Below, one piece after another: positions 52,499-63,175 of a stretch of 64,000 nt of DNA. Below the pieces are notes generated by a model. It made no database searches and had not been told where the DNA came from. It saw only the letters and a program-made list of their open reading frames with translations. This DNA comes from an uncultured delta proteobacterium (GTDB lineage Bacteria > Myxococcota_A > Polyangia > Polyangiales > Polyangiaceae). The position numbers were made by a program, and so were the translations under genes. Location of the stretch: assembly GCA_963782055.1 (NCBI GenBank), contig CAWAIF010000003.1:4640001-4704000 (forward strand), given 5' to 3'. Positions within the stretch are counted from its first letter, which is position 1; every line of letters begins with the position of its first letter.

Positions 52499-54022
52499 GT
52501 GGACATGAAGGAGGGCCAGACGATCGCCGGGAAGTACCGGCTGCATCACCTGCTCGGAACGGGCGGGATGGCCACCGTCTGGTCTGCGACCAACGTCTTC
52601 ACCGACCGCCAGTTCGCCATCAAGTTCCTGCTGCCCAACGTCGCCAAGACGCCCGAGGCCTCCCGCCGCTTCCTCATGGAGGCGAAGGTGAGCGGCCGCG
52701 TGCAGCACCCCAACATCATCGAGGTGATGGACGTCGGCCAGGCCGAGGACGGCGTGCTCTTTCTGGTGATGGAGCTCCTGCAGGGCGTCTCGCTGGAGAT
52801 GGCCATGCGCCAGCAGAGCCCGCCGATGAGCCTCTACGAGTTCGCCGGCGTGATGACCGACGTGGCGCGCGCCCTCGCGGCGGCGCACCGCGGCGGCGTC
52901 ATCCACCGCGACCTCAAGCCCTCCAACATCTTCATGCACAAGGACCGCGGCGGCATCGCGGTGCCCAAGGTGCTCGACTTCGGCGTCAGCAAGTTCCTCC
53001 TGGACGACGACCGCAACAACGCCCTCACCGTCGCCGGCACCGTGCTCGGCTCGCCGCTGTACATGAGCCCGGAGCAGGCCGTCGGCGCGAGCGACATCGA
53101 CCACCGCACCGACGTCTTCGCCTTCGGCGCCATCCTCTTCGAGGGCCTCTGCGGCTTCCGCGCCTACGACGCGCCCAACTTCAACGCGCTCATCGTCACC
53201 ATCGCCACCCAGCAGCCGAAGAGCATCGACCAGTACGGCGCGCACCTGCCGGAGAGCCTGCGCGCCATCGTGCGCGACTGCATGGTCACCGATCGCAAGA
53301 AGCGCATCGCCGGCTTCGATCAGGTCGTCGAGCGCATGACCGCGCTGCTCCCGGAGCTCGAGCACAACCCGCTGCGATTGCCGGCGCCCATCCAGCGCGA
53401 TTCCCGCCCCCCGCCGGACCCGGAGTCCACCAGCGCCATGCCGGCGATCGTCCGGCCGAGCGACAGGCCTCCCTCCTTCCACGAGGGGCCGCCGCCCGTC
53501 TCCGCGTCGCAGGCGCCCTGGGCCGGCTCCCTTCCCGGCGTCCGGCCGAAGCGCACCCCCGTGCTGCTCTTCGCCGCGGTGGGGATGCTCCTGGCCTCCA
53601 TCCTCATCGTGGGCGTGCTCGTGCTGGCCGTCGCGCGCCGGCACTTCCGCTCGGTCGCCGCCGCGGCGTCCACGCCCGCCGCGGCTTCGGTCGTCGCGCA
53701 GGCCGACCCCGCGCCCACCACCTCCGCCTCGGCGGACGTCCCCGTCATCAACATCGACTCGCTGCCGGTCGCGTCGGCGTCCGCCTCGAAGCACACCGTC
53801 GTCCCGCGCGGCCGGGGCCGCCTCTACGTCGACGCGTCGCCGCACTGGTGCACCGTCAGCGTCGACGGCAAGGTTCGCGGCCCGACGCCCCTCGCCAACC
53901 TGAGCGTATCTGCCGGCCCGCACACCCTGCGGTGCGAGACCTCCGGCGGCGTCGCCAAGACCGTCACCATCACCGTCTACGGAGGGCAGACGGTGCGCCA
54001 CAAGTTCGCGACGAGCCCCTGA
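52499..54022 (+). CDS. Membrane Ser/Thr protein kinase with C-terminal PEGA-like domain
   Basis: LGTGGMATV, AIK, HRDLKPSN, DFG, YMSPE, TM, VSVDGKVRGPTP. Confidence 0.95.
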   Translation: MDMKEGQTIAGKYRLHHLLGTGGMATVWSATNVFTDRQFAIKFLLPNVAKTPEASRRFLMEAKVSGRVQHPNIIEVMDVGQAEDGVLFLVMELLQGVSLEMAMRQQSPPMSLYEFAGVMTDVARALAAAHRGGVIHRDLKPSNIFMHKDRGGIAVPKVLDFGVSKFLLDDDRNNALTVAGTVLGSPLYMSPEQAVGASDIDHRTDVFAFGAILFEGLCGFRAYDAPNFNALIVTIATQQPKSIDQYGAHLPESLRAIVRDCMVTDRKKRIAGFDQVVERMTALLPELEHNPLRLPAPIQRDSRPPPDPESTSAMPAIVRPSDRPPSFHEGPPPVSASQAPWAGSLPGVRPKRTPVLLFAAVGMLLASILIVGVLVLAVARRHFRSVAAAASTPAAASVVAQADPAPTTSASADVPVINIDSLPVASASASKHTVVPRGRGRLYVDASPHWCTVSVDGKVRGPTPLANLSVSAGPHTLRCETSGGVAKTVTITVYGGQTVRHKFATSP

Positions 54023-54027
54023 GCGCC

Positions 54028-55185
54028 ATGTCGCCGCCGCGCCCGCGCACGGTCGCCGTCGCCTGTGCAGCCTTCGGGGTGCTCGTGGCGGCCCGCTGCT
54101 CGCGGCCCCCCAACGGCCCGCCGGAGCCGCGGGCCGGGGGCGACGCGACCATCGGCCCGGCGCCGGACATCGCCCCCGCGCAGGACGCCGCAGACGAGGC
54201 GCCGTACCTGGACGCGACCGGCGCCCTCCTGGACGCCGCGAGCGACGCGCCGGACGACGCGGACCTCGCGGACATCGACGCCGAACCGCCGGACGACCCG
54301 ATGGCCCTGCACCAGGACACCCGCGCCGGCCTGCTCGCCCTCATCGACCTGCGCGACTTCACCCCCGCGCAGCTCAAGGTCGTGCGGCCGGACATCTTCC
54401 TGCGCCTCAACGTGGGCCCCGCCGTCACGCGCATGAACCAGGGCAACAAGGCCATCGCCCACCACGCGATCGGCCGCCGCGCCTGCTTGCGCGGCTTGCA
54501 AGGCGTGGTGCTGCAGACGCCGGAGCAGCGCGCGCGCTGCGGCGCGCCCTACATGGTGCCCATCTACAAGAAGGGCGACCCGAAGAGCGCACACTACTGC
54601 ATGGACATCTTCGAGTTCCCGGACAAGCCGTGCGAGCTGCCCTTCGTCTGGGCGGCGCCCACCCACGCGGCCACCATGTGCGCGCTGCAGGGCAAGCGCC
54701 TCTGCACCGAGGCGGAGTGGAACCTGGCGTGCCGCGCCGACCCCGCCGGCGGCGCGGACACGACCTACGCCTACGGCGACGAGCTCGACCTCACCATCTG
54801 CAACACCGACAAGCCGCGCGGCGCGAGCAACAAGTGCCGCCCGGCCACGGCGAAGATGGCGTGGGAGACGTGCAGCACCGACACCGAGCCCTCCGGCGCC
54901 TTCCCCCGGTGCCGCTCGCGCTTCGGCGTCTACGATCAGCACGGCAACGTCGCCGAGATCATGACCCGCCACGACAAGAACGGGACGCTGGTCTCGCAGC
55001 TCAAGGGCAGCGCATTCTTCTACGCCGAGGTCGCGCAGAAGCCCGGCGAGCGCGGCCGCCCCGGCAGCTACCCCGACCACTGCAACTTCGACCCCCGCTG
55101 GCATGTCGAGGCGATGGACCACGCCTGGCACGTCAACTACCACCTGGGCTTCCGCTGCTGTAAGTCGATCCCCCCCGAGCCTTGA
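54028..55185 (+). CDS. FGE-sulfatase domain lipoprotein
   Basis: YCMDIFE, GKRLCTEAEW, YDQHGNVAE, GFRCC. Confidence 0.8.
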   Translation: MSPPRPRTVAVACAAFGVLVAARCSRPPNGPPEPRAGGDATIGPAPDIAPAQDAADEAPYLDATGALLDAASDAPDDADLADIDAEPPDDPMALHQDTRAGLLALIDLRDFTPAQLKVVRPDIFLRLNVGPAVTRMNQGNKAIAHHAIGRRACLRGLQGVVLQTPEQRARCGAPYMVPIYKKGDPKSAHYCMDIFEFPDKPCELPFVWAAPTHAATMCALQGKRLCTEAEWNLACRADPAGGADTTYAYGDELDLTICNTDKPRGASNKCRPATAKMAWETCSTDTEPSGAFPRCRSRFGVYDQHGNVAEIMTRHDKNGTLVSQLKGSAFFYAEVAQKPGERGRPGSYPDHCNFDPRWHVEAMDHAWHVNYHLGFRCCKSIPPEP

Positions 55186-55205
55186 GCCGTAGCCGGGGCT
55201 GCGGG

Positions 55206-56009
55206 CTACAGCCCGCCGAGCAGCACGCCGCGCTCGCCCAGATCCGCCAGCAGCCGCGCCACCGACGCCAGCACCTCGTCGTCCATCGCGCGCCCGCGCT
55301 CCTCGCACGCGCCCTTCACCGCGTCGCCCAGCGCCTCCCCGCGCTCCACCCGCGCGATCACCGAGTACGCCAGCGGCGAGAGCTCCAGGAAGCGCACCGC
55401 GTGCTCCTCGTCGCGGTACGCGAGCAGGAAGGTCTCCCCCGCCTCCGGCGTCTCGCGGGCATCCTCCTCGGCGGAGAGCCGGTGCACCGCGTGCCCGAGC
55501 GCGAGCAGCCGCATCACGGCGGTGAGCACCAGCGGCCGGTCCAGCGCCAGCTCGGCGAGGCCCGGCGGCTCGGCCAGGTCCGGCGCGGACGCGACGGCGA
55601 CCTCGGCCAGCTCCAGCTCGGCGAGATCGGCCAGGTACCCGGGCAGCTCGGCGCGCGCGCGCCATCGCGGCGACGCCCACGCCACGAGCTCGCCCGGCAC
55701 GTCCTTGACGTAGTGCGTGCGCGGCCCGACCTCGTGCAGGAAGGCGTCGACCTCGGCGTCGAAGGCGCCCTCCTGCGCGGCGTTCATGCGCGCGCGCGTG
55801 CGCGCGAGCAGCCGGTAGACCACCCCCTCCAGGGTGTTTCGCACCAGCCGCCGGTAGATGGCGAGCCGCGCCGGCATCATCGCGTCGATGTCGCGGGCGT
55901 CGACCCCGCGCCGCTCCAGGAAGCCGCGCGGATCGCGCGCCAGCTCTTCCCCGGCGCCCTCCTGGAGGCAAGCATCGGCGATGGCCTGCTGCAGGCTGCG
56001 GTCCGCCAT
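55206..56009 (-). CDS. DUF2063-like MNIO partner (putative RiPP recognition protein)
   Basis: RLAIYRRLVRN, LPGYLADLAELE, HAVHRL, LAYRD...VRFLEL; coupled to the DUF692 gene. Confidence 0.75.
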   Translation of the reverse strand: MADRSLQQAIADACLQEGAGEELARDPRGFLERRGVDARDIDAMMPARLAIYRRLVRNTLEGVVYRLLARTRARMNAAQEGAFDAEVDAFLHEVGPRTHYVKDVPGELVAWASPRWRARAELPGYLADLAELELAEVAVASAPDLAEPPGLAELALDRPLVLTAVMRLLALGHAVHRLSAEEDARETPEAGETFLLAYRDEEHAVRFLELSPLAYSVIARVERGEALGDAVKGACEERGRAMDDEVLASVARLLADLGERGVLLGGL

Positions 56010-56896
56010 CACCCCGTCCGCTCTCGTTCCCCCTCCCCCTCCAGCGGGAGGGAGGCCGGGAGGGTGAGTCCGCGGATGCGCTCGATCTCCGCGAGCAGCC
56101 CTGCCAGGGGCGGCACGTTGTTGTCGCGCTCCAGCACGATGGGCACCGGGCCGGTGCGCGGCAGCACGCGCCCGAGCAGCGCGAGCACCGGATCGCAGAC
56201 GTCGGCGCCGTGCGTGTCCAGGACGATCGAGCCGCTCGCGCCCGGCACGAAGTCGCCCTCGTCGAAGTGCTCGTGCCCCGCCACGTGGATCTGCACCGTG
56301 CGCTCCAGCGGCGCGACGCGCAGCCACTCGTCGACGTCGAAGCCGAAGTTGTGCGCGTTCACGTAGGCGTTGTTCACGTCCAGCATCAGCCCGCAGTCCG
56401 CGCGATCGCACACCCGCGCGATGAACTCCGGCTCGCTCATGCCCCGCGCGCCGGGGTGGACGTAGAAGCTGATGTTCTCGACGGCCATCGGCACGCCCAG
56501 CGTGTCCTGCGCGCGCCGCACCCTCTCGGCGACGCGATCGGCGGTGGCCTCGGTGAACCCGAGCGGGAGCAGATCGTGGAGCATGACGCCGCGCGCGGAG
56601 CCGAAGCAGAGGTGATCGGAGTGCCAGGGAGCGCGCACGTCCCGGAGGAAGGCGCGGAGCTCGCGCAGGTATTCGGCATCCAGCGGGTCGGCGCCGCCGA
56701 GCGACATGGTGAGCCCGTGCGTGAGGACGGGGAAGCGCCCGGCCAGGTGCGAGAGCGCGGCAGGGAAGTAGCCCCCGCGGCGCATGTAGTTCTCCGGCGA
56801 GATCTCCAGGAAGTCGATGGGCCGGGTGGTCTCGGCGTCGGCGGCGAGGAGCTCGTCGATGAACTCCCACCGCAGCCCGAGGCCGACGCCCCTCAT
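56009..56896 (-). CDS. DUF692-family multinuclear non-heme iron oxidase (MNIO)
   Basis: GLGLR, EISPENY, HGLTMSLG, SDHL, HDLLPL, VENIS, LDVNNAYVN, IHVAGH, DTHG, LERD. Confidence 0.93.
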   Translation of the reverse strand: MRGVGLGLRWEFIDELLAADAETTRPIDFLEISPENYMRRGGYFPAALSHLAGRFPVLTHGLTMSLGGADPLDAEYLRELRAFLRDVRAPWHSDHLCFGSARGVMLHDLLPLGFTEATADRVAERVRRAQDTLGVPMAVENISFYVHPGARGMSEPEFIARVCDRADCGLMLDVNNAYVNAHNFGFDVDEWLRVAPLERTVQIHVAGHEHFDEGDFVPGASGSIVLDTHGADVCDPVLALLGRVLPRTGPVPIVLERDNNVPPLAGLLAEIERIRGLTLPASLPLEGEGERERTG

Positions 56897-56899
56897 GCC

Positions 56900-57382
56900 C
56901 TACTTCTTCTTCGGGTCCGCCGCGCAGGTGCCCGCGCCGCAGCTCGCGTTGGCCGCCTTGGGCGACTTGTGCTTCGGCGGGGTGTGCTTCTTCGGCTTCG
57001 GCGGAGGCGTCGTGGTCGCGGTCGTCGGGGCGGGCGGCGGCTTCGCGTCCTTCGACGCATCGGTGGGCTGTACCCCGTCGCCCGAGCCGCTCGCCGCGCC
57101 CGAGGGCGGCGTGGTGCTCGCCGTGTCGCCCAGCGCGCCGCCACCCTTCGGCGTGGCCCCGCAGGACGCCGCCGGCGTGTCGGGCGCGGCCTTCGGCTTG
57201 GCGCCGCAGCTCGCGTTCGACGAGCCGGCGTTGCCGCCGTTCTGCGTGGAGGTGACCTCGGTGGAGCTCGCCGGCGACTGCGCGGCGGGCGCGGCGCCCC
57301 CGCAGGCGGCGAGCACGACGGCCGAGCTGCCCAGCGCGGCGAGCGTGGAGGCGATGTTCTTGAGCGAGAGGTTGGGACGCAT
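56900..57382 (-). CDS. Putative RiPP precursor lipoprotein with ASCGA repeats
   Basis: GAGGAG SD, LAAC lipobox, low-complexity body with NASCGA, AASCGA, NASCGAGTCAA; ends 3 nt before the MNIO start. Confidence 0.8.
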   Translation of the reverse strand: MRPNLSLKNIASTLAALGSSAVVLAACGGAAPAAQSPASSTEVTSTQNGGNAGSSNASCGAKPKAAPDTPAASCGATPKGGGALGDTASTTPPSGAASGSGDGVQPTDASKDAKPPPAPTTATTTPPPKPKKHTPPKHKSPKAANASCGAGTCAADPKKK

Positions 57383-57402
57383 GCGGTGTGGGCTCCTCTT
57401 CT

Positions 57403-58209
57403 TCAGTCTACATGTCCGAGCGTGGCGTGCAGGTCGAGCGTGACGTCGGCCGTCTTGGCGACCTTGGCGACGAGGCTGGTGGTCCACGCGGTGAGCTTGC
57501 CGATGTTGTCGCGCGGCTTCACGTCGTGCTCGGCGAGGGTCACCTCCATCGGTTTTTTACTACGCACGTCCACCTTCGTTGGTTTCGACGTGGGGGTGCT
57601 GCCGGCAGCGTAGTGGAAGCGCGCCTCCACCGGCACGTCCTTCTGGACCTTGTGGCCGTGGAGCAGGAAGTCGCCGTGCACCGTGGCCGTGACGGTGCGG
57701 ATGTCCTCGCCGCTCTCGCTCTTGGGAGGGACCTTCGACAGATCGGTGGCGCTCAGGCCGTCGACCGACTGGATGGCGAAGACCACGTACTGGTTGGCCG
57801 CCTTGGTCTTGGCGTCGGCGATGTCCCCCACCTCGAGCCAGTTGCGGGCGTGACGCGTCTGCGTGTCGTTCTTGTCCTGGTCGTCGGCGAAGGTGTGCAT
57901 CGTCAGGGTCGTCAGGTCCACCTTCACCTCGCCGCGGGTGTTGGCGAGGTTCCCCAGGTCGATCTGGAGCTGGCCGCCGGCGGCGTCGGTGTCGGCCTTG
58001 ATCTCCTCCTTCAGGCCGGCCATGTCCACGCTGGTCTTGCTCTTGGGGTCGATGTCGTACGTCACCACCATCGCGCTGGCCGGCGGCGCGGCGGCGCTCA
58101 CCGCGCTGGCGGAGGCGGCGAGGTTCACCGGCGGGTCCTTCTTCGAGCACGCAAAGAGCAGCGCGCCCGCCGTCACCACGCCCAGAGCCATCACACCTGC
58201 TCGCTTCAT
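57403..58209 (-). CDS. YceI-like lipoprotein
   Basis: LFAC lipobox; GQLQIDLGNLANTRGEVKVDLTTL and VHGDFLLHG resemble the YceI barrel. Confidence 0.7.
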   Translation of the reverse strand: MKRAGVMALGVVTAGALLFACSKKDPPVNLAASASAVSAAAPPASAMVVTYDIDPKSKTSVDMAGLKEEIKADTDAAGGQLQIDLGNLANTRGEVKVDLTTLTMHTFADDQDKNDTQTRHARNWLEVGDIADAKTKAANQYVVFAIQSVDGLSATDLSKVPPKSESGEDIRTVTATVHGDFLLHGHKVQKDVPVEARFHYAAGSTPTSKPTKVDVRSKKPMEVTLAEHDVKPRDNIGKLTAWTTSLVAKVAKTADVTLDLHATLGHVD

Positions 58210-58250
58210 CGATCGCTTTCCTTCCGGCCCCCCGCGAGGGCACCCTATCC

Positions 58251-58276
58251 TACGCGCTCACCCTCTTCTGGTTTCA
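58251..58276 (-). promoter_or_regulatory. ECF-sigma-type promoter (TGAAAC-N16-CGTA)
   Basis: Minus strand TGAAAC-cagaagagggtgagcg-CGTA, about 40 nt upstream of the YceI-like start. Confidence 0.6.
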
Positions 58277-58437
58277 TCGCCTTCGGTGGAGCCTGCGGCT
58301 TGGCCCCAAATTCGCGGACTTTGCGCGGGAGAAGGGTTGCCGTCCAGCCACGAACTTGGCATTCTCCATCACCGTGGCACTGTCATATTCCAGCCTGGGC
58401 GTGGCCCGGCGGATGGTGCCACGAGCGGAGGTGGCCG

Positions 58438-60723
58438 GTGAACGCACGCGCCTGGATCTCGACCCTGTTGTTCGCTCTGGCGCTGCTGGCGGGCGCCTTC
58501 TCCGCGGGCTGCGGCAGCGAGGACCCCATCTCGGTGTTCGACAGCGGCACCGGACAGGACGCGCAGGTCGTCGGGCCGACAGACGCGACGACCTCCGATG
58601 ACAGCCCCTTCTTCCAGAACGACGCGGGCACCACCACCGCGATCACCATCCAGCCGGCAGACCCTGTCGTCGACGTGACCATCGCCGACGGGGTGCTCTC
58701 GACCACGCCGCTCACCTTCCAGGCCATCGCCAACAACACCAGCTCGCCCGTCGCCGCGTCCTTCACCCTGGACCGCGGGGAGCTCGGCGATCTCGTCGCT
58801 GCCACCGGCGTCTTCACCGCGAGCGGCAACGTCAGCGGCACCGGGACGGTCACGGCGACCTTCCAGAACCTCAAGGCCACCACCACGGTGACCGTGCACG
58901 TCACCATCACGCAGAACGGCAAGCCGCAGCTCGACGGCGGCGTGCCCGACGGCGGCACCCTCGGGGGCAACAACGGCGTCGGCGGCAACGACTACGGCGA
59001 CCCGGTGGACAACACCACCAAGACGATCCTCGACGGCCAGGCCCAGAAGCCCCAGAACCAGGCGGAGCTCGGCTGGCTCTACCCGTACGACAAGACAGTC
59101 TGGCCGCGCGGGGTGCTCGCCCCGCTGCTGCAGTGGCAGACGACGCACACCATCCAGGCGGTGCGCATCCACCTGGAGCAGAAGAACTTCACCTTCGACG
59201 GCTATTACGCGGGCAACGCGCTGATCAACGAGCCCGTCGACCAGACGGCGTGGAAGAAGGCGCTCTACGGCAACGGGGGCGACCCGCTCCACGTCGACCT
59301 CTACGTGACCGACGGCACCACCAACTTCGGCCCCATCTCGGAGGACTGGCTGGTGGCGCCCGGCACGCTGAAGGGCACCGTCTACTACAACTCGTACAAC
59401 TCGCGGCTCACGACCGGCTCCAACGGGGTGGTGCTCTCCATCAAGCCGGGGGCGGTGGCGCCGGACCTGGCCGTCCCGGGCACCGACACCAAGTGCCACG
59501 TCTGCCACGAGGTCTCCAGCGACGGCTCGACGCTCTTCGTCCAGGACGACACCTACTCCGACGGCGCCTCGTACGACCTCACCAACAACAACGGCACGCC
59601 CATCGCGACGTACAGCGGCACCGCCTCCGACGGCACGTCCAACAACCGCAAGTTCCTCTGGTCGGGCGTCTACCCCGACGGCACCTTCGCCATGAGCAAC
59701 GCGCGGCACGCGCGCGAGCACGCCAGCATCGACTCCAACCTCTTCAAGCGCTCCGACGGCACCAAGATCGCCACCAGCGGGTGGACGAGCGCGGTGACCT
59801 CCGCCGTCACGCCCGCCTTCTCCCCGGACGGCAAGCGCCTCGCCTTCAACTTCTGGGAGGGCCCCGGCGCCAACGGCGTGACCGCCGGCGCGGGCCACTC
59901 GCTCGACATCATCGACTTCGACTGCGGCCAGGCCGATGGCGGCAAGACGTGCGGCAGCCCCCCGTACGCCTTCTCCAACCTCCGTGAGCTCTACAAGGAC
60001 AGCAACCGCTGGGTGGGCTGGCCGGGCTTCACGCCCGACGGCCAGGGCATCGTCTTCCACGACACCGTCAAGGCGGGGAGCTGCGGCGACTGCGAGATCG
60101 CCACGTGGAACGGCGCGCAGGCGGAGCTCTGGTACACCGACGTCGCGCAGAACAACAAGCCGGTGCGCATGAACGCGCTCGATGGCCTGGACGCCAACAA
60201 CACGAGCTACCTGCCCACCAACAACAAGCACCCCGACGACACCATCCTCAACTACGAGCCGACGGTGAACCCCATCGCCTCCGGCGGGTACTTCTGGGTG
60301 GTGTTCACCACCCGGCGCATGTACGGCAACGTCGCCGCGGGCGATCCGTACGACAACGGCAACGGCACCTACCCCATCCCCAAGAAGCTCTGGGTCGCCG
60401 CGGTGGACATCAACCCGACGCCCGGCACCGATCCCTCGCACCCCGCCTTCTACCTGCCCGGCCAGGAGATCAACGCGGGCAACCTGCGCGGCTTCTGGGT
60501 CGTCGACCCCTGCAAGTCCAACGGCAACACCTGCGAGACCGGCGACGAGTGCTGCGGCGGCTTCTGCCGCAAGGACCCCGAGGGTGGCGGCTACGTCTGC
60601 ACCGACACGCCGCCCCCCGGCTGCTCGCAGGAGTTCGAGAAGTGCTCGAGCGATGGCGACTGCTGCGGCAACCCGCAGATCAAGTGCATCAACGGGTTCT
60701 GCGCGAAGCCCAAGCCGAACTGA
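58438..60723 (+). CDS. TolB-like (PD40) beta-propeller lipoprotein with CxxCH and Cys-rich tail, paralogue 1
   Basis: GGAGGT SD, SAGC lipobox, PAFSPDGK, PGFTPDG, CHVCH, C-terminal CC-rich modules. Confidence 0.8.
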   Translation: MNARAWISTLLFALALLAGAFSAGCGSEDPISVFDSGTGQDAQVVGPTDATTSDDSPFFQNDAGTTTAITIQPADPVVDVTIADGVLSTTPLTFQAIANNTSSPVAASFTLDRGELGDLVAATGVFTASGNVSGTGTVTATFQNLKATTTVTVHVTITQNGKPQLDGGVPDGGTLGGNNGVGGNDYGDPVDNTTKTILDGQAQKPQNQAELGWLYPYDKTVWPRGVLAPLLQWQTTHTIQAVRIHLEQKNFTFDGYYAGNALINEPVDQTAWKKALYGNGGDPLHVDLYVTDGTTNFGPISEDWLVAPGTLKGTVYYNSYNSRLTTGSNGVVLSIKPGAVAPDLAVPGTDTKCHVCHEVSSDGSTLFVQDDTYSDGASYDLTNNNGTPIATYSGTASDGTSNNRKFLWSGVYPDGTFAMSNARHAREHASIDSNLFKRSDGTKIATSGWTSAVTSAVTPAFSPDGKRLAFNFWEGPGANGVTAGAGHSLDIIDFDCGQADGGKTCGSPPYAFSNLRELYKDSNRWVGWPGFTPDGQGIVFHDTVKAGSCGDCEIATWNGAQAELWYTDVAQNNKPVRMNALDGLDANNTSYLPTNNKHPDDTILNYEPTVNPIASGGYFWVVFTTRRMYGNVAAGDPYDNGNGTYPIPKKLWVAAVDINPTPGTDPSHPAFYLPGQEINAGNLRGFWVVDPCKSNGNTCETGDECCGGFCRKDPEGGGYVCTDTPPPGCSQEFEKCSSDGDCCGNPQIKCINGFCAKPKPN

Positions 60724-60886: not shown

Positions 60887-63175
60887 ATGACCCGATCGCT
60901 TCTCCGACTCCTGGTGATCTCTCTCCTCCTCGTGGCGGCGGTGGTCGCGGCCGGCTGCGGCAGCGACGACACCGGTCCGGCGACGTTCCCCAACAGCCCG
61001 GACTCCGGAGGCCTGCCGGGTGACGGCCTGGACGCCAGCTTCAACGGCAAGGACGGCGGCCCGCTCCAGTCGATCCAGATCCAGCCGCAGGACCCCGTGG
61101 TGGACGTCACCATCGCCGACGGCGTGGTCACCACCACGCCGCTCACCTTCACCGCGACGGGCAACAACGGCGCGTCGATCGCCGCCAGCTTCGGCCTGGA
61201 CCGCGGCGAGCTGGGCGATCTGATCGCCTCCACCGGCGTCTTCACCGCCAGCGGCAACCTGGGCGGCACCGGCACCGTCACCGCCACCTACCAGGGCCTC
61301 GAGGCGCAGACCTCGCTCACCGTCCACATCGTCATGACGCAGAACGGTCCGCCGGACGGCGGCGTGGTGGACGGCGGCGCGGGCGGCTACGGCGGCGTCG
61401 GCGGCAGCGGGCCGGGCAACGCGGTGGACTCGCAGACCAAGCAGCGGCTGATGGGTCCCTCGCAGAAGCCGCAGAGCGCGCAGGAGCTGGGCTTCCTCTA
61501 CCCGTACGACAAGACGGTGTGGCCGCGCGGCGTGCTCGCCCCGCTGCTGCAGTGGCAGACGACGCACACGATCGCGTACGTGCGCATCCACCTGGAGCAG
61601 AAGAACTTCAGCTTCGACGGCTTCTACGGCGGCAGCGCGCTGGTCAACCAGCCCATCGACCCCAACGCCTGGAAGAAGGCGCTCTACGGCAACGGCGGGG
61701 ACGCGCTCCACGCCGACCTGTACGTCGCCGACCAGAACACGGTGTGGGGCCCCATCTCGGAGGACTGGCCCGTCGCCGCGGGCACCCTCAAGGGCACCGT
61801 CTACTACAACTCGTACAACTCCGGCCTCAACGCCAACGGGGCGACCACCGGCGCGGTGCTGGCGATCAAGCCGGGCGCGACGGCGCCGACGCTCGCGATC
61901 CCCTCGCTCAAGGGCAAGTGCCACGTCTGCCACGAGGTGGCGAGCGACGGCTCCTCGCTCTACACGCAGATCTCCTCGTCGCTCGTCGACAACAGCCAGT
62001 ACTACGCGCCCAACGCCTCCTTCGACATGACGAACAACGCGCAGCAGATCGCGTCGTACACGGGCAACGCGCCGGACGGGACGAACAACGACCGCAAGTT
62101 CCTCTGGTCGGCGGTGTATCCCGACGGCACCTTCGCCCTGTCCAACTCGCGCCACGCCCGCGAGCACAACACGCTGGACTCCGACCTGTTCGCGCGCGCG
62201 GACGGCACGCGCATCGACTCCACGGGCCTCAACGGCGTCGTCTCCAGCGCGGTGACGCCCGCCTTCTCGCCCGACGGCAAGCGGGTGGCGTTCAACTTCT
62301 GGGAGGGCGCGGGCGGAGGCGGCGTCACCGCGGGCGCGGGCCACTCCCTGGCGGTCATGGACTTCGACTGCGGCCAGGGCAACGGCGTGACGTGCAGCGG
62401 GGCGCCCCCCTACGCCTTCGGCAACCTGAAGGAGCTGTACCGCGACAACACCCGCTGGCCGGCGTGGCCCAGCTTCACCCCCGACGGCGCGGCGCTCCTC
62501 TTCCACAACACCGTCACCAAGGGCACGTGCGGCGACTGCGAGATCGCCACCTGGTACGGCGCGCAGGCGGAGCTCTGGTACACCGACGTCCCCAAGAACG
62601 GCTCGCCGATGCCGGTGCGCATGAACGCGCTGGACGGCCTGGACGCCAGCAACCAGCGCTACCTCCCCCAGAACGGCGACCACCCGGACGACACCGTGCT
62701 CAACTACGAGCCGACGGTGAACCCCATCGCGTCCGGCGGGTACTACTGGGTCGTGTTCACTTCACGCCGGATGTACGGCAACGTCGCGGCAGGCAAGCCC
62801 TACGACAACGGGGACGGCACCTACCCCATCGCCAAGAAGCTCTGGGTGGCCGCGGTGGACATGAACCCCAAGCCCGGCGACGACCCCTCCCACCCGGCGT
62901 TCTACCTGCCCGGGCAGGAGCTGGACGCGGGCAACATGCGCGGCTTCTGGGTCGTCGACCCGTGCCAGCCCAACGGCACCGACTGCGAGACTGGCGACGA
63001 GTGCTGCAACGGCTTCTGCCGCAAGGCGGAGGACGGCGGCGGGCTGGTGTGCACCGACAAGCCGCCGGGGTGCGCGCAGGAGTTCGAGAAGTGCACGACC
63101 GACGCCGACTGCTGCGGGGCGAACTCGGGGATCGCGTGCATCGGCGGGCGGTGCTCGAAGAAGTCTCCGAATTGA
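60887..63175 (+). CDS. TolB-like (PD40) beta-propeller lipoprotein with CxxCH and Cys-rich tail, paralogue 2
   Basis: AAGC lipobox; co-linear with paralogue 1 over its full length. Confidence 0.8.
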   Translation: MTRSLLRLLVISLLLVAAVVAAGCGSDDTGPATFPNSPDSGGLPGDGLDASFNGKDGGPLQSIQIQPQDPVVDVTIADGVVTTTPLTFTATGNNGASIAASFGLDRGELGDLIASTGVFTASGNLGGTGTVTATYQGLEAQTSLTVHIVMTQNGPPDGGVVDGGAGGYGGVGGSGPGNAVDSQTKQRLMGPSQKPQSAQELGFLYPYDKTVWPRGVLAPLLQWQTTHTIAYVRIHLEQKNFSFDGFYGGSALVNQPIDPNAWKKALYGNGGDALHADLYVADQNTVWGPISEDWPVAAGTLKGTVYYNSYNSGLNANGATTGAVLAIKPGATAPTLAIPSLKGKCHVCHEVASDGSSLYTQISSSLVDNSQYYAPNASFDMTNNAQQIASYTGNAPDGTNNDRKFLWSAVYPDGTFALSNSRHAREHNTLDSDLFARADGTRIDSTGLNGVVSSAVTPAFSPDGKRVAFNFWEGAGGGGVTAGAGHSLAVMDFDCGQGNGVTCSGAPPYAFGNLKELYRDNTRWPAWPSFTPDGAALLFHNTVTKGTCGDCEIATWYGAQAELWYTDVPKNGSPMPVRMNALDGLDASNQRYLPQNGDHPDDTVLNYEPTVNPIASGGYYWVVFTSRRMYGNVAAGKPYDNGDGTYPIAKKLWVAAVDMNPKPGDDPSHPAFYLPGQELDAGNMRGFWVVDPCQPNGTDCETGDECCNGFCRKAEDGGGLVCTDKPPGCAQEFEKCTTDADCCGANSGIACIGGRCSKKSPN

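Follow-up and report, generated by a model that had tools for sequence, protein, structure and literature searches.

A probable captophorin-type operon with a lipoprotein-type precursor in Polyangia myxobacteria

Introduction

Clusters that pair an MNIO (DUF692) enzyme with a PME1 partner are among the most widespread pathways for peptides made on the ribosome and altered after translation (RiPPs), and their physiology is unclear. Gadgil et al. 2026 united all MNIO-PME1 clusters under the name captophorins and revised the structure of oxazolin to 5-thiooxazoles, the characterised systems all installing 5-thiooxazoles and binding Cu (PMC13097082). In the same report, the FonBC enzymes required a small residue after the Cys, tolerated Ala, Thr or Arg before it, needed two repeats and removed 4 Da per Cys. 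Here, we describe a four-gene MNIO operon with a lipoprotein-type precursor, located in a 64,000-nucleotide stretch of DNA (hereafter, the window) from an uncultured delta proteobacterium of the Polyangiaceae (GCA_963782055.1, contig CAWAIF010000003.1, positions 4,640,001 to 4,704,000).

Several described systems resemble this locus. Leprevost et al. 2024 reported that BufB and BufC form 5-thiooxazoles on a Sec-exported, copper-protective precursor (PMC11626156), and Antoine et al. 2025 mapped MNIO precursor families (PMC12452194). Bulbicupramide carries di-Cys cassettes with Cys residues five positions apart, which are converted into two thiooxazoles and bind Cu(I) (PMC12538549). Lipobox-bearing MNIO products are also known: DybA and the oxazolin NedA are triacylated via signal peptidase II (PMC13056109), and the same study delineated 'Cluster X', a group of uncharacterised lipoprotein precursors with a highly conserved CxxxxC (PMC13056109; preprint PMC12636315). 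Enzyme class, chemistry, a role in copper handling and lipidation of the products have all been published, and the locus described here opens no new category.

A four-gene MNIO operon, probably of the captophorin type

The operon contains the elements that mark a captophorin: an MNIO, an adjacent PME1 partner (DUF2063 with an RRE-like domain) and, directly upstream, a Cys-containing precursor with a Sec-type signal (Table 1). By analogy, the system fits the MNIO-PME1 captophorin class, and 5-thiooxazole formation and copper binding would be expected of it. All four open reading frames (ORFs) lie on the minus strand of a window with a G+C content of about 70%. The tight arrangement described in the initial annotation was reproduced from the DNA, with 20 nt between the YceI-like and precursor genes, 3 nt between precursor and MNIO, and -1 nt (a TGATG overlap) between MNIO and partner. 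Scanning positions 55000-58600 returned no promoter-like site; the terminator scan of the same interval returned a single hairpin, which falls within the YceI gene but on the wrong strand and did not exceed shuffled sequences.

The identity of the two enzymes was clear at the family level. The MNIO matched PF05114 (MbnB_TglH_ChrH) over profile positions 1-260 of 263 (E 1.1e-91), with 3BWW as its best solved relative (E 6e-50). Across 25 orthologues, 80 columns are invariant, including H60, H92, D94, H95, E140, D173, N176, H204, H208, D227, H229, E256 and D258, and the invariant His, Asp and Glu columns are identical in the alignment with 3BWW. The partner matched both PF09836 (E 2.8e-7) and PF22106 (E 4.7e-14) above the Pfam cut-offs, and 3DEE weakly. 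Complex prediction of MNIO, partner and precursor from alignments gave a score of 0.74, compared with 0.62 for a control in which the MNIO was replaced, and was weighed neither for nor against the proposed assembly.

At the subfamily level, the MNIO scored 282.1 bits against HvfB (cut-off 360) and 271.4 bits against BufB (cut-off 310) in NCBIfam, with the remote models ChrH, MbnB and ApyH at 56, 66 and 99 bits, and the partner scored 109.8 bits against HvfC (cut-off 142), its nearest model; HvfB and BufB were thus almost equally close to the MNIO. Assignment to a characterised family, which the initial annotation had left to be checked, has two sides: the enzymes fall below the HvfB, BufB and HvfC cut-offs, whereas the system as a whole fits the captophorin class. 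In a tree of 39 rows, from which window duplicates, the Acidimicrobiales locus described below, two genes with frameshifts and hits of less than 240 aa were omitted, the MNIOs of this family formed a 100/100 clade separate from the three paralogous MNIOs of the same genome.

Table 1 Features of the operon (window coordinates).
Feature	Position	Strand	Remarks
YceI-like lipoprotein	57403..58209	-	268 aa, lipobox LFAC with Cys21; first gene of the operon
RiPP precursor gene, lipoprotein-type (candidate)	56900..57382	-	160 aa; family without a Pfam or NCBIfam model
Signal peptide with lipobox, residues 1-27 MRPNLSLKNIASTLAALGSSAVVLAAC	57302..57382	-	Cys27 is the predicted lipidation site
Candidate internal site 1, NASCGA (Cys59)	57200..57217	-	from the precursor translation
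Candidate internal site 2, AASCGA (Cys74)	57155..57172	-	from the precursor translation
C-terminal cassette NASCGAGTCAADPKKK	56903..56950	-	Cys148 and Cys153, CxxxxC; invariant in 30 sequences
MNIO (DUF692) maturase	56009..56896	-	295 aa; cytoplasmic, without signal peptide
PME1-type partner	55206..56009	-	267 aa; DUF2063 N-domain and NGO1945_C/RRE-like C-domain

A conserved precursor family with a C-terminal di-Cys cassette

The precursor begins with an n-region (MRPNLSLK) followed by a hydrophobic stretch and the LAAC lipobox ending in Cys27; the assignment of signal peptide and lipobox rests on the sequence and on conservation within the family rather than on a predictor. As first annotated, its remaining Cys residues are confined to C59 (NASCGA), C74 (AASCGA) and C148/C153 (NASCGAGTCAA), and the body is of low complexity, with A, P, G, T, S or K accounting for 110 of the 133 residues downstream of Cys27. 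Searches of Pfam and NCBIfam returned no match at E<=0.01, and none of six family members tested matched the NCBIfam models of the HvfA/BufA type, even at E<=10.

The precursor belongs to a real family whose conservation is beyond chance, as judged from its sequences. A word-indexed search recovered 33 relatives at E<=0.01, and a profile run against 1.84 billion representatives recovered 212 clusters at E<=0.001, 96 of them at E<=1e-10. We aligned 30 of 34 sequences, omitting P0023, P0031 and P0034 (upstream-extended starts) and P0035 (frameshifted). Residues M1, R2, L5, G18, Cys27 and S147, C148, G149, G151, T152 and C153 are invariant in this alignment, and P3, N4, S6, A11, L14 and G28 are conserved in at least 90%. 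It is these relatives and clusters, together with the invariant lipobox Cys and SCGxGTC residues, that place the family beyond chance. The precursor family itself is a feature that we did not find in print.

The 56 unique members define what is constant and what is not. In every one a lipobox-like tetrad ends in Cys, and 49 have Gly at +2, whereas the number of Cys residues after the lipobox ranges from 2 to 8 and that of internal sites from 0 to 6; ten members have only the C-terminal pair, and single unpaired Cys-Gly sites occur in many. Since the internal sites vary in this way, the family signature is a signal peptide with lipobox plus a C-terminal SCGxGTC, and the 'ASCGA repeats' by which the system was first described do not define it, as the internal sites lack positional conservation. 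The expectation that SCGA motifs would be conserved in orthologues accordingly held for the invariant C-terminal pair and failed for the internal ASCGA sites, which differ in position and number. From this pattern, the C-terminal Cys148/Cys153 cassette is most likely the main modification and metal site.

Across the same members, the 228 core Cys residues are followed by G in 138 cases, S in 57, A in 26, T in 6 and N in 1, and preceded by S in 120, T in 57, G in 31, H in 12, A in 4, K in 2 and N in 2. The small residue after all 228 matches the substrate preference of FonBC (PMC13097082). Labilithrix-type precursors contain tandem EG[GS]CG(A/G)HK repeats resembling EGKCG, and in a more distant branch of the family the extreme C-terminus reads ...GCGAGTCG. 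The Labilithrix luteola orthologue AKV03036.1/WP_205633960.1 (L016:5001-5453, in our numbering of loci) is named 'Transcriptional regulator' in GenBank, which looks like a misannotation.

Distribution and gene order

We scanned one genome per prokaryotic species for the pattern ASCGAGTC[AST] and confirmed 32 loci. Thirty-one bear myxobacterial labels, namely Labilithrix (including L. luteola DSM 27648), Polyangiaceae, Polyangiales, and metagenome-assembled genomes (MAGs) labelled 'Myxococcales' or 'delta proteobacterium'; the remaining one is an Acidimicrobiales MAG. A profile of the distant branch matched 14 of 401 sampled genomes of the phylum, including the window's own: 11 of the 28 genomes in the window's family (f1) and 2 of the 4 in a second family (f16), with no match in the other families searched in that sample. 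Two f16 loci were inspected, and neither MNIO nor YceI was found within 1.5 kb; in the class-level precursor-profile search, f16 matches mostly contained internal stops and lacked the profile ends, and were treated as low-complexity noise. The distribution is therefore stated from f1 and the pattern-confirmed loci, and among the genomes searched the precursor family is confined to Polyangia myxobacteria.

Gene order was compared in 33 loci, that is, the 32 pattern loci and the window's own. MNIO and YceI genes were each present in 28, and in 27 both were present and co-directional with the precursor between them; several of the remaining loci are clipped by contig ends. Five precursor copies are orphans, namely those of L026, L028, L031 and L034, far from any MNIO, and that of L023, which has YceI without MNIO. 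In the divergent loci L037-L039 and L041, the order YceI-precursor-MNIO-partner is retained at identities to the window of 27-30% for YceI, 53-57% for MNIO and 35-40% for the partner. Because the YceI gene is kept in divergent loci at such low identity, its link to the cassette predates recent shared ancestry.

The first gene encodes a recognisable member of the YceI family. Its product matched PF04264 with 26.4 bits (cut-off 23.7) over profile positions 1-148 of 150, and its AlphaFold2 model (mean pLDDT 84) found the YceI/polyisoprenoid-binding structures 2X34, 3Q34, 5IXH, 1Y0G and 1WUB as best Foldseek matches (E 4e-8 to 2e-6; TM 0.64-0.78 on the target; probability 1.00 for 2X34, 3Q34, 1Y0G and 1WUB). 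In many related clusters, those with Lys-Cys precursors among them, DoxX stands at the position that the YceI gene occupies here. Our literature search found no publication pairing YceI with DUF692, and YceI went unmentioned in the MNIO publications found; a conserved YceI lipoprotein in an MNIO cassette is a feature that we did not find in print. It points to a lipid or quinone link that published studies leave unaddressed, and a quinone-linked redox role and lipid handling are our guesses for it.

The partner gene, by contrast with the bufABC order of bufferins, for which 'strict conservation' is reported (PMC12452194), changes orientation within this family. Of the 26 loci with a partner, 11 have it in the direction of the MNIO and 15 have it inverted; in 13 loci the inverted partner lies directly behind a Ser/Thr kinase gene, with which it appears to be co-transcribed. 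Mapped on the MNIO tree, orientation changed at least 3-4 times, and the co-directional window nests among inverted relatives, one of them of the same genus. Loci compared for orientation were L005, L007, L010-L014, L018, L021, L024, L027, L029, L032, L033, L036, L045, L046 and L050. Inverted repeats flanking the partner gene were sought in the window, L012 and L005, and gave weak GC-rich pairs only, none bracketing the gene. This repeated inversion is likewise a feature that we did not find in print.

In one MAG locus (L012:4197-5405), YceI and precursor were called as a single open frame with no intervening stop, and a joint frame also occurs in the metagenome proteins P0060, P0096 and P0120, two of which look frameshifted. 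The joint frame may reflect either a sequencing error or real read-through.

Relation to described systems

Among the closest parallels are HvfABC (oxazolin), FonABC (fontiphorin) and NgoABC (gonophorin), the Lys-Cys group with EGKCG precursors. They share with the window the MNIO, the DUF2063/RRE partner and a Sec-exported precursor directly upstream, as well as Cys-Gly, Cys pairs five positions apart (SCGAGTC here, KCGEGKC there) and a cluster without protease or exporter. The C-G-A-G-T-C of the window can even be read as a degenerate double repeat (ASCG/AGTCA alongside EGKCG/EGKCG), Labilithrix-type relatives have EG[GS]CG repeats, and NedA is a lipidated Lys-Cys member (PMC13056109). In contrast to that group, the window precursor lacks EGKCG and has Ser, Thr, Gly or His in place of Lys, which precedes Cys at only 2 of the 228 family sites, and the enzymes score below the HvfB and HvfC equivalog cut-offs.

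The enzymes differ in parallel. Gadgil et al. reported that Arg15-Arg16 and Asp249-Phe250 govern MNIO selectivity (PMC13097082). At the aligned positions 3BWW has Arg-Arg and Asp-Phe, whereas the window MNIO has Arg-Trp (Trp10) and Asp-Asn (Asn259); all 24 motif-recovered MNIOs of the family have the Arg-Trp pair, with Q, N, T or M after the Asp (Asp-Asn/Gln being what sets the window type against Asp-Phe). The altered residues at two selectivity positions are a further feature that we did not find in print. With one invariant di-Cys cassette lacking Lys and Glu, combined with matched enzyme changes, the family offers a minimal natural substrate and a natural test of the selectivity rules.

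The Caulobacter vibrioides bufferins Buf1 (DUF2282) and Buf2 (Buf_6/12Cys, 'Cys-Lys') share the enzyme pair and the A-B-C order (PMC11626156). Their 5-thiooxazoles, Sec export and periplasmic copper protection are described (PMC11626156), and such chemistry would apply here by analogy. Their precursors are small folded proteins, whereas that of the window is disordered and of low complexity and matches neither DUF2282 nor BufA2. Bulbicupramide from Microbulbifer (MmrABC) shares Cys residues five apart, each followed by Gly, an MNIO/DUF2063 pair and the lack of a protease (PMC12538549); it differs in its Lys-Cys-Gly cassettes and phylum, and the excerpts of that report mention no lipobox.

Among lipidated products, the RiPP-lipoproteins DybA and NedA share a lipobox precursor beside an MNIO and cytoplasmic modification followed by lipidation, a sequence of events that would hold here as well, whereas the MNIO subfamily and chemistry of DybH/ChrH differ from those of the window. 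'Cluster X' may be the precursor family of the window, a match by description (lipobox, CxxxxC) only; the main text of PMC13056109, in the excerpts used, mentions neither YceI nor Labilithrix nor Polyangia. The CxxxxC family and the unclassified signal-peptide precursors of Antoine et al. also combine a signal peptide and CxxxxC with adjacent MNIO and DUF2063 genes, and belong to the large MNIO cluster (PMC12452194), although the CxxxxC clusters contain DoxX and, in 54%, Lactamase_B_2 (PMC12452194), neither of which is present in the window operon.

Further entries of Antoine et al. concern L. luteola. Their complete-genome table credits it with two MNIOs, two DUF2063 proteins and no Buf1, Buf2 or Buf_EGKCG precursor. 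Its MNIO WP_146653865.1 appears in the PME-type 1 partner list only and in no precursor-type list, that of CxxxxC included; as these lists hold representative nodes, the absence is weak evidence. The Adjamnio-3 family (signal peptide, unstructured, DUF2063) was considered as a match and rejected, as the L. luteola MNIO is not in the Cluster_3 list.

These comparisons qualify two claims of the initial annotation. Its 'distinct subtype' stands insofar as the locus has its own precursor family and enzymes below the cut-offs, and gives way insofar as it is a sub-branch of a unified and partly characterised class. The predicted membrane-tethered modified protein agrees with a lipobox invariant across the family; the idea is no longer new, since lipidated members were demonstrated experimentally in 2026 (PMC13056109).

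Proposed maturation and alternatives

In our proposal, the unfolded 160-aa precursor would be bound in the cytoplasm by the MNIO, which depends on iron and O2, together with the DUF2063/RRE partner, and Cys148 and Cys153, and probably Cys59 and Cys74, would be oxidised to 5-thiooxazoles with a loss of 4 Da each. Spaced like those of two tandem EGKCG repeats, Cys148 and Cys153 would together provide a single bis-(N,S) site for Cu(I). The disordered chain would then pass through Sec, and Cys27 would be diacylglycerylated, followed by cleavage by signal peptidase II and N-acylation. Modification would have to precede export because both MNIO and partner lack a signal peptide, the same argument as that made for DybA. 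The product would be a Lys- and Pro-rich tether of about 133 residues in an envelope membrane, with one to three copper-sequestering metal sites, and the co-transcribed YceI-like lipoprotein, a lipid/isoprenoid-binding barrel, would be its dedicated accessory.

Taken as a whole chain, a captophorin-type (bufferin/oxazolin-like) RiPP operon with a copper-sequestering lipoprotein product is, in our judgement, the probable reading; the relation between enzymes and substrate is more certain than the whole chain, and the copper role less so. We infer every chemical and cellular step, namely modification, lipidation and copper binding, from sequence. The precursor lies directly 5' of the MNIO at a gap of 3 nt, the YceI-precursor-MNIO unit is co-directional in 27 of 33 loci, and the lipobox precursor has a counterpart, of the BufA2 type, in a paralogous operon of this genome. 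The earlier proposals drawn from the operon were in keeping with these data: domain identities, synteny and Cys contexts support an MNIO and partner that would act on a lipoprotein precursor; the lack of a protease or exporter, with the lipobox, would fit the general Sec/Lgt/Lsp route; and a metal buffer in the cell envelope is plausible on comparative evidence. If so, soil myxobacteria would possess a lipid-anchored, intrinsically disordered metallophore, with L. luteola as a culturable carrier.

Several observations weigh against this reading. The internal Cys sites of the window have no positional conservation in the family, and MNIO, partner and precursor all fall below the curated cut-offs of characterised subfamilies. 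Chemistry or site choice could differ, because two selectivity positions depart from those of EGKCG enzymes. The lipobox Cys itself precedes Gly, and the proposal gives no account of its escape from modification. The operon contains no copper-resistance or metal-sensor gene; next to it lie genes for a Ser/Thr kinase and for a protein with an FGE-sulfatase domain. No RNA run was found for the locus, and DNA runs gave one small-share row from a soil metagenome. Finally, the accessory role of YceI may be subtle, because the accessory DoxX of bufferin 1 is dispensable (PMC11626156).

The alternative that survives best accepts the modification as proposed and assigns it another role: binding of another metal, redox or thiol buffering in the envelope, or a part in myxobacterial predation or social behaviour, played at the surface or through outer-membrane vesicles. 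The missing copper genes would fit such a role, as would the conserved synteny of the Ser/Thr kinase, apparently co-transcribed with the inverted partner in 13 loci, the incompletely assessed metal specificity of such peptides (PMC13097082) and the binding of isoprenoids and antibiotics by YceI-family proteins (structure titles 2X34, 1WUB, 5IXH and 7BWL). Nevertheless, we hold it to be rather unlikely, in that all tested members of the class bind copper or protect against it (PMC13097082, PMC11626156, PMC12538549), and small His/Cys-rich proteins, together with a lipoprotein that is YtkA-like, follow the operon in L. luteola, which hints at a metal context.

Still less probable is different chemistry at the CxxxxC pair, such as a cross-linked macrocycle, as formed by ChrH/DybH on CPxCGxG, or oxazolone-thioamides, with a function other than copper buffering. 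MNIOs do run very different reactions on Cys pairs (PMC13056109), and the present clade does not reach the equivalog cut-offs of HvfB and BufB and has its own residues at two selectivity positions. Against this, ChrH, MbnB and ApyH score far lower (56, 66 and 99 bits) than HvfB and BufB (282 and 271), many family members have single unpaired Cys-Gly sites, and the partner is a bona fide DUF2063/PME1 protein, for which all characterised MNIO-PME1 cases give 5-thiooxazoles (PMC13097082). That the 160-aa ORF is an ordinary low-complexity lipoprotein beside an MNIO rather than its substrate, as its composition, the orphan copies (L026, L028, L031 and L034) and L023 without MNIO might suggest, is highly improbable, given that precursor genes of this class keep to the place right upstream of the MNIO (PMC12452194), that the Cys pair and Cys contexts are invariant in the family, that the core motif recurs in another phylum ahead of a different MNIO, and that orphan precursor genes are reported for bufferins too (PMC12452194).

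Within the captophorin reading, the first 20 residues are so strongly conserved that the signal peptide may also act as a leader; in bufferins, the BufA1 signal peptide was dispensable for modification (PMC11626156). A bolder version seems to us doubtful: the lipidated metallophore could not function without YceI, the two lipoproteins would make up one envelope module in which the isoprenoid/quinone pocket of YceI takes on the redox or lipid-handling part that falls to DoxX elsewhere, and the unusually conserved signal peptide (MRPNLS...LAALG) would double as the leader bound by the RRE of the partner. Were it true, RiPP biosynthesis would have recruited a general export signal as its leader, and captophorins would depend in their function on the quinone pool of the membrane.

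Genomic surroundings and further loci

Three other MNIO loci were found in the same genome. The first (L001:1098-3272; contig C3:1685833-1689615) is a second captophorin operon with a lipobox precursor (TVACGG) that contains ACKGQNDCKGQGGCK motifs and scores 47 bits against BufA2 (cut-off 60), followed by an MNIO and an apparent partner gene. In the second (L002:836-1348), the gene before the MNIO, the third of the genome, encodes a lipobox protein (LMAGCGG) in which KASCSGA occurs once. In L003, a fourth MNIO lies in a long open frame of 653 aa, possibly fused to a membrane domain, with upstream ORFs of 432-635 aa.

The Acidimicrobiales MAG (L035:1070-2617) encodes a 124-aa precursor with no signal peptide and with an acidic leader, whose core GEASCGAGTCTADPKKK is as in the window. 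The MNIO after it shares only 33% identity with that of the window; the flanks hold an ECF-type sigma gene on the upstream side and genes for a regulator and an ABC ATPase on the downstream side. Recent transfer and chimeric assembly were considered for the shared core motif and rejected, since synonymous positions set its codons apart from those of the myxobacteria.

Downstream of the orthologous operon in L. luteola (L016:7436-9384), we observed small His/Cys-rich proteins and lipoproteins with MPxHGHG motifs. One of these proteins is YtkA-like (E 5e-13); the group may indicate a metal context, which the window lacks.

In the window, two genes are convergent with the operon: one (54025-55185, +) for an FGE-sulfatase-domain protein and one (52499-54022, +) for a Ser/Thr kinase whose C-terminus bears a PEGA domain. 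Synteny of the kinase gene extends to many loci, that of the FGE-like gene to the nearest four (L012, L013, L024 and the window); fusion proteins of the Buf1/Cytochrom_C/FGE-sulfatase type have been catalogued by Antoine et al. (PMC12452194). On the other side, two large paralogues (58450-60723, +, and about 60900-63175, +) are divergent from the operon. Both match WD40-like/PD40 repeats and end in a Cys-rich C-terminal tail (...CETGDECCGGFCRK...), and they are syntenic in the nearest relatives.

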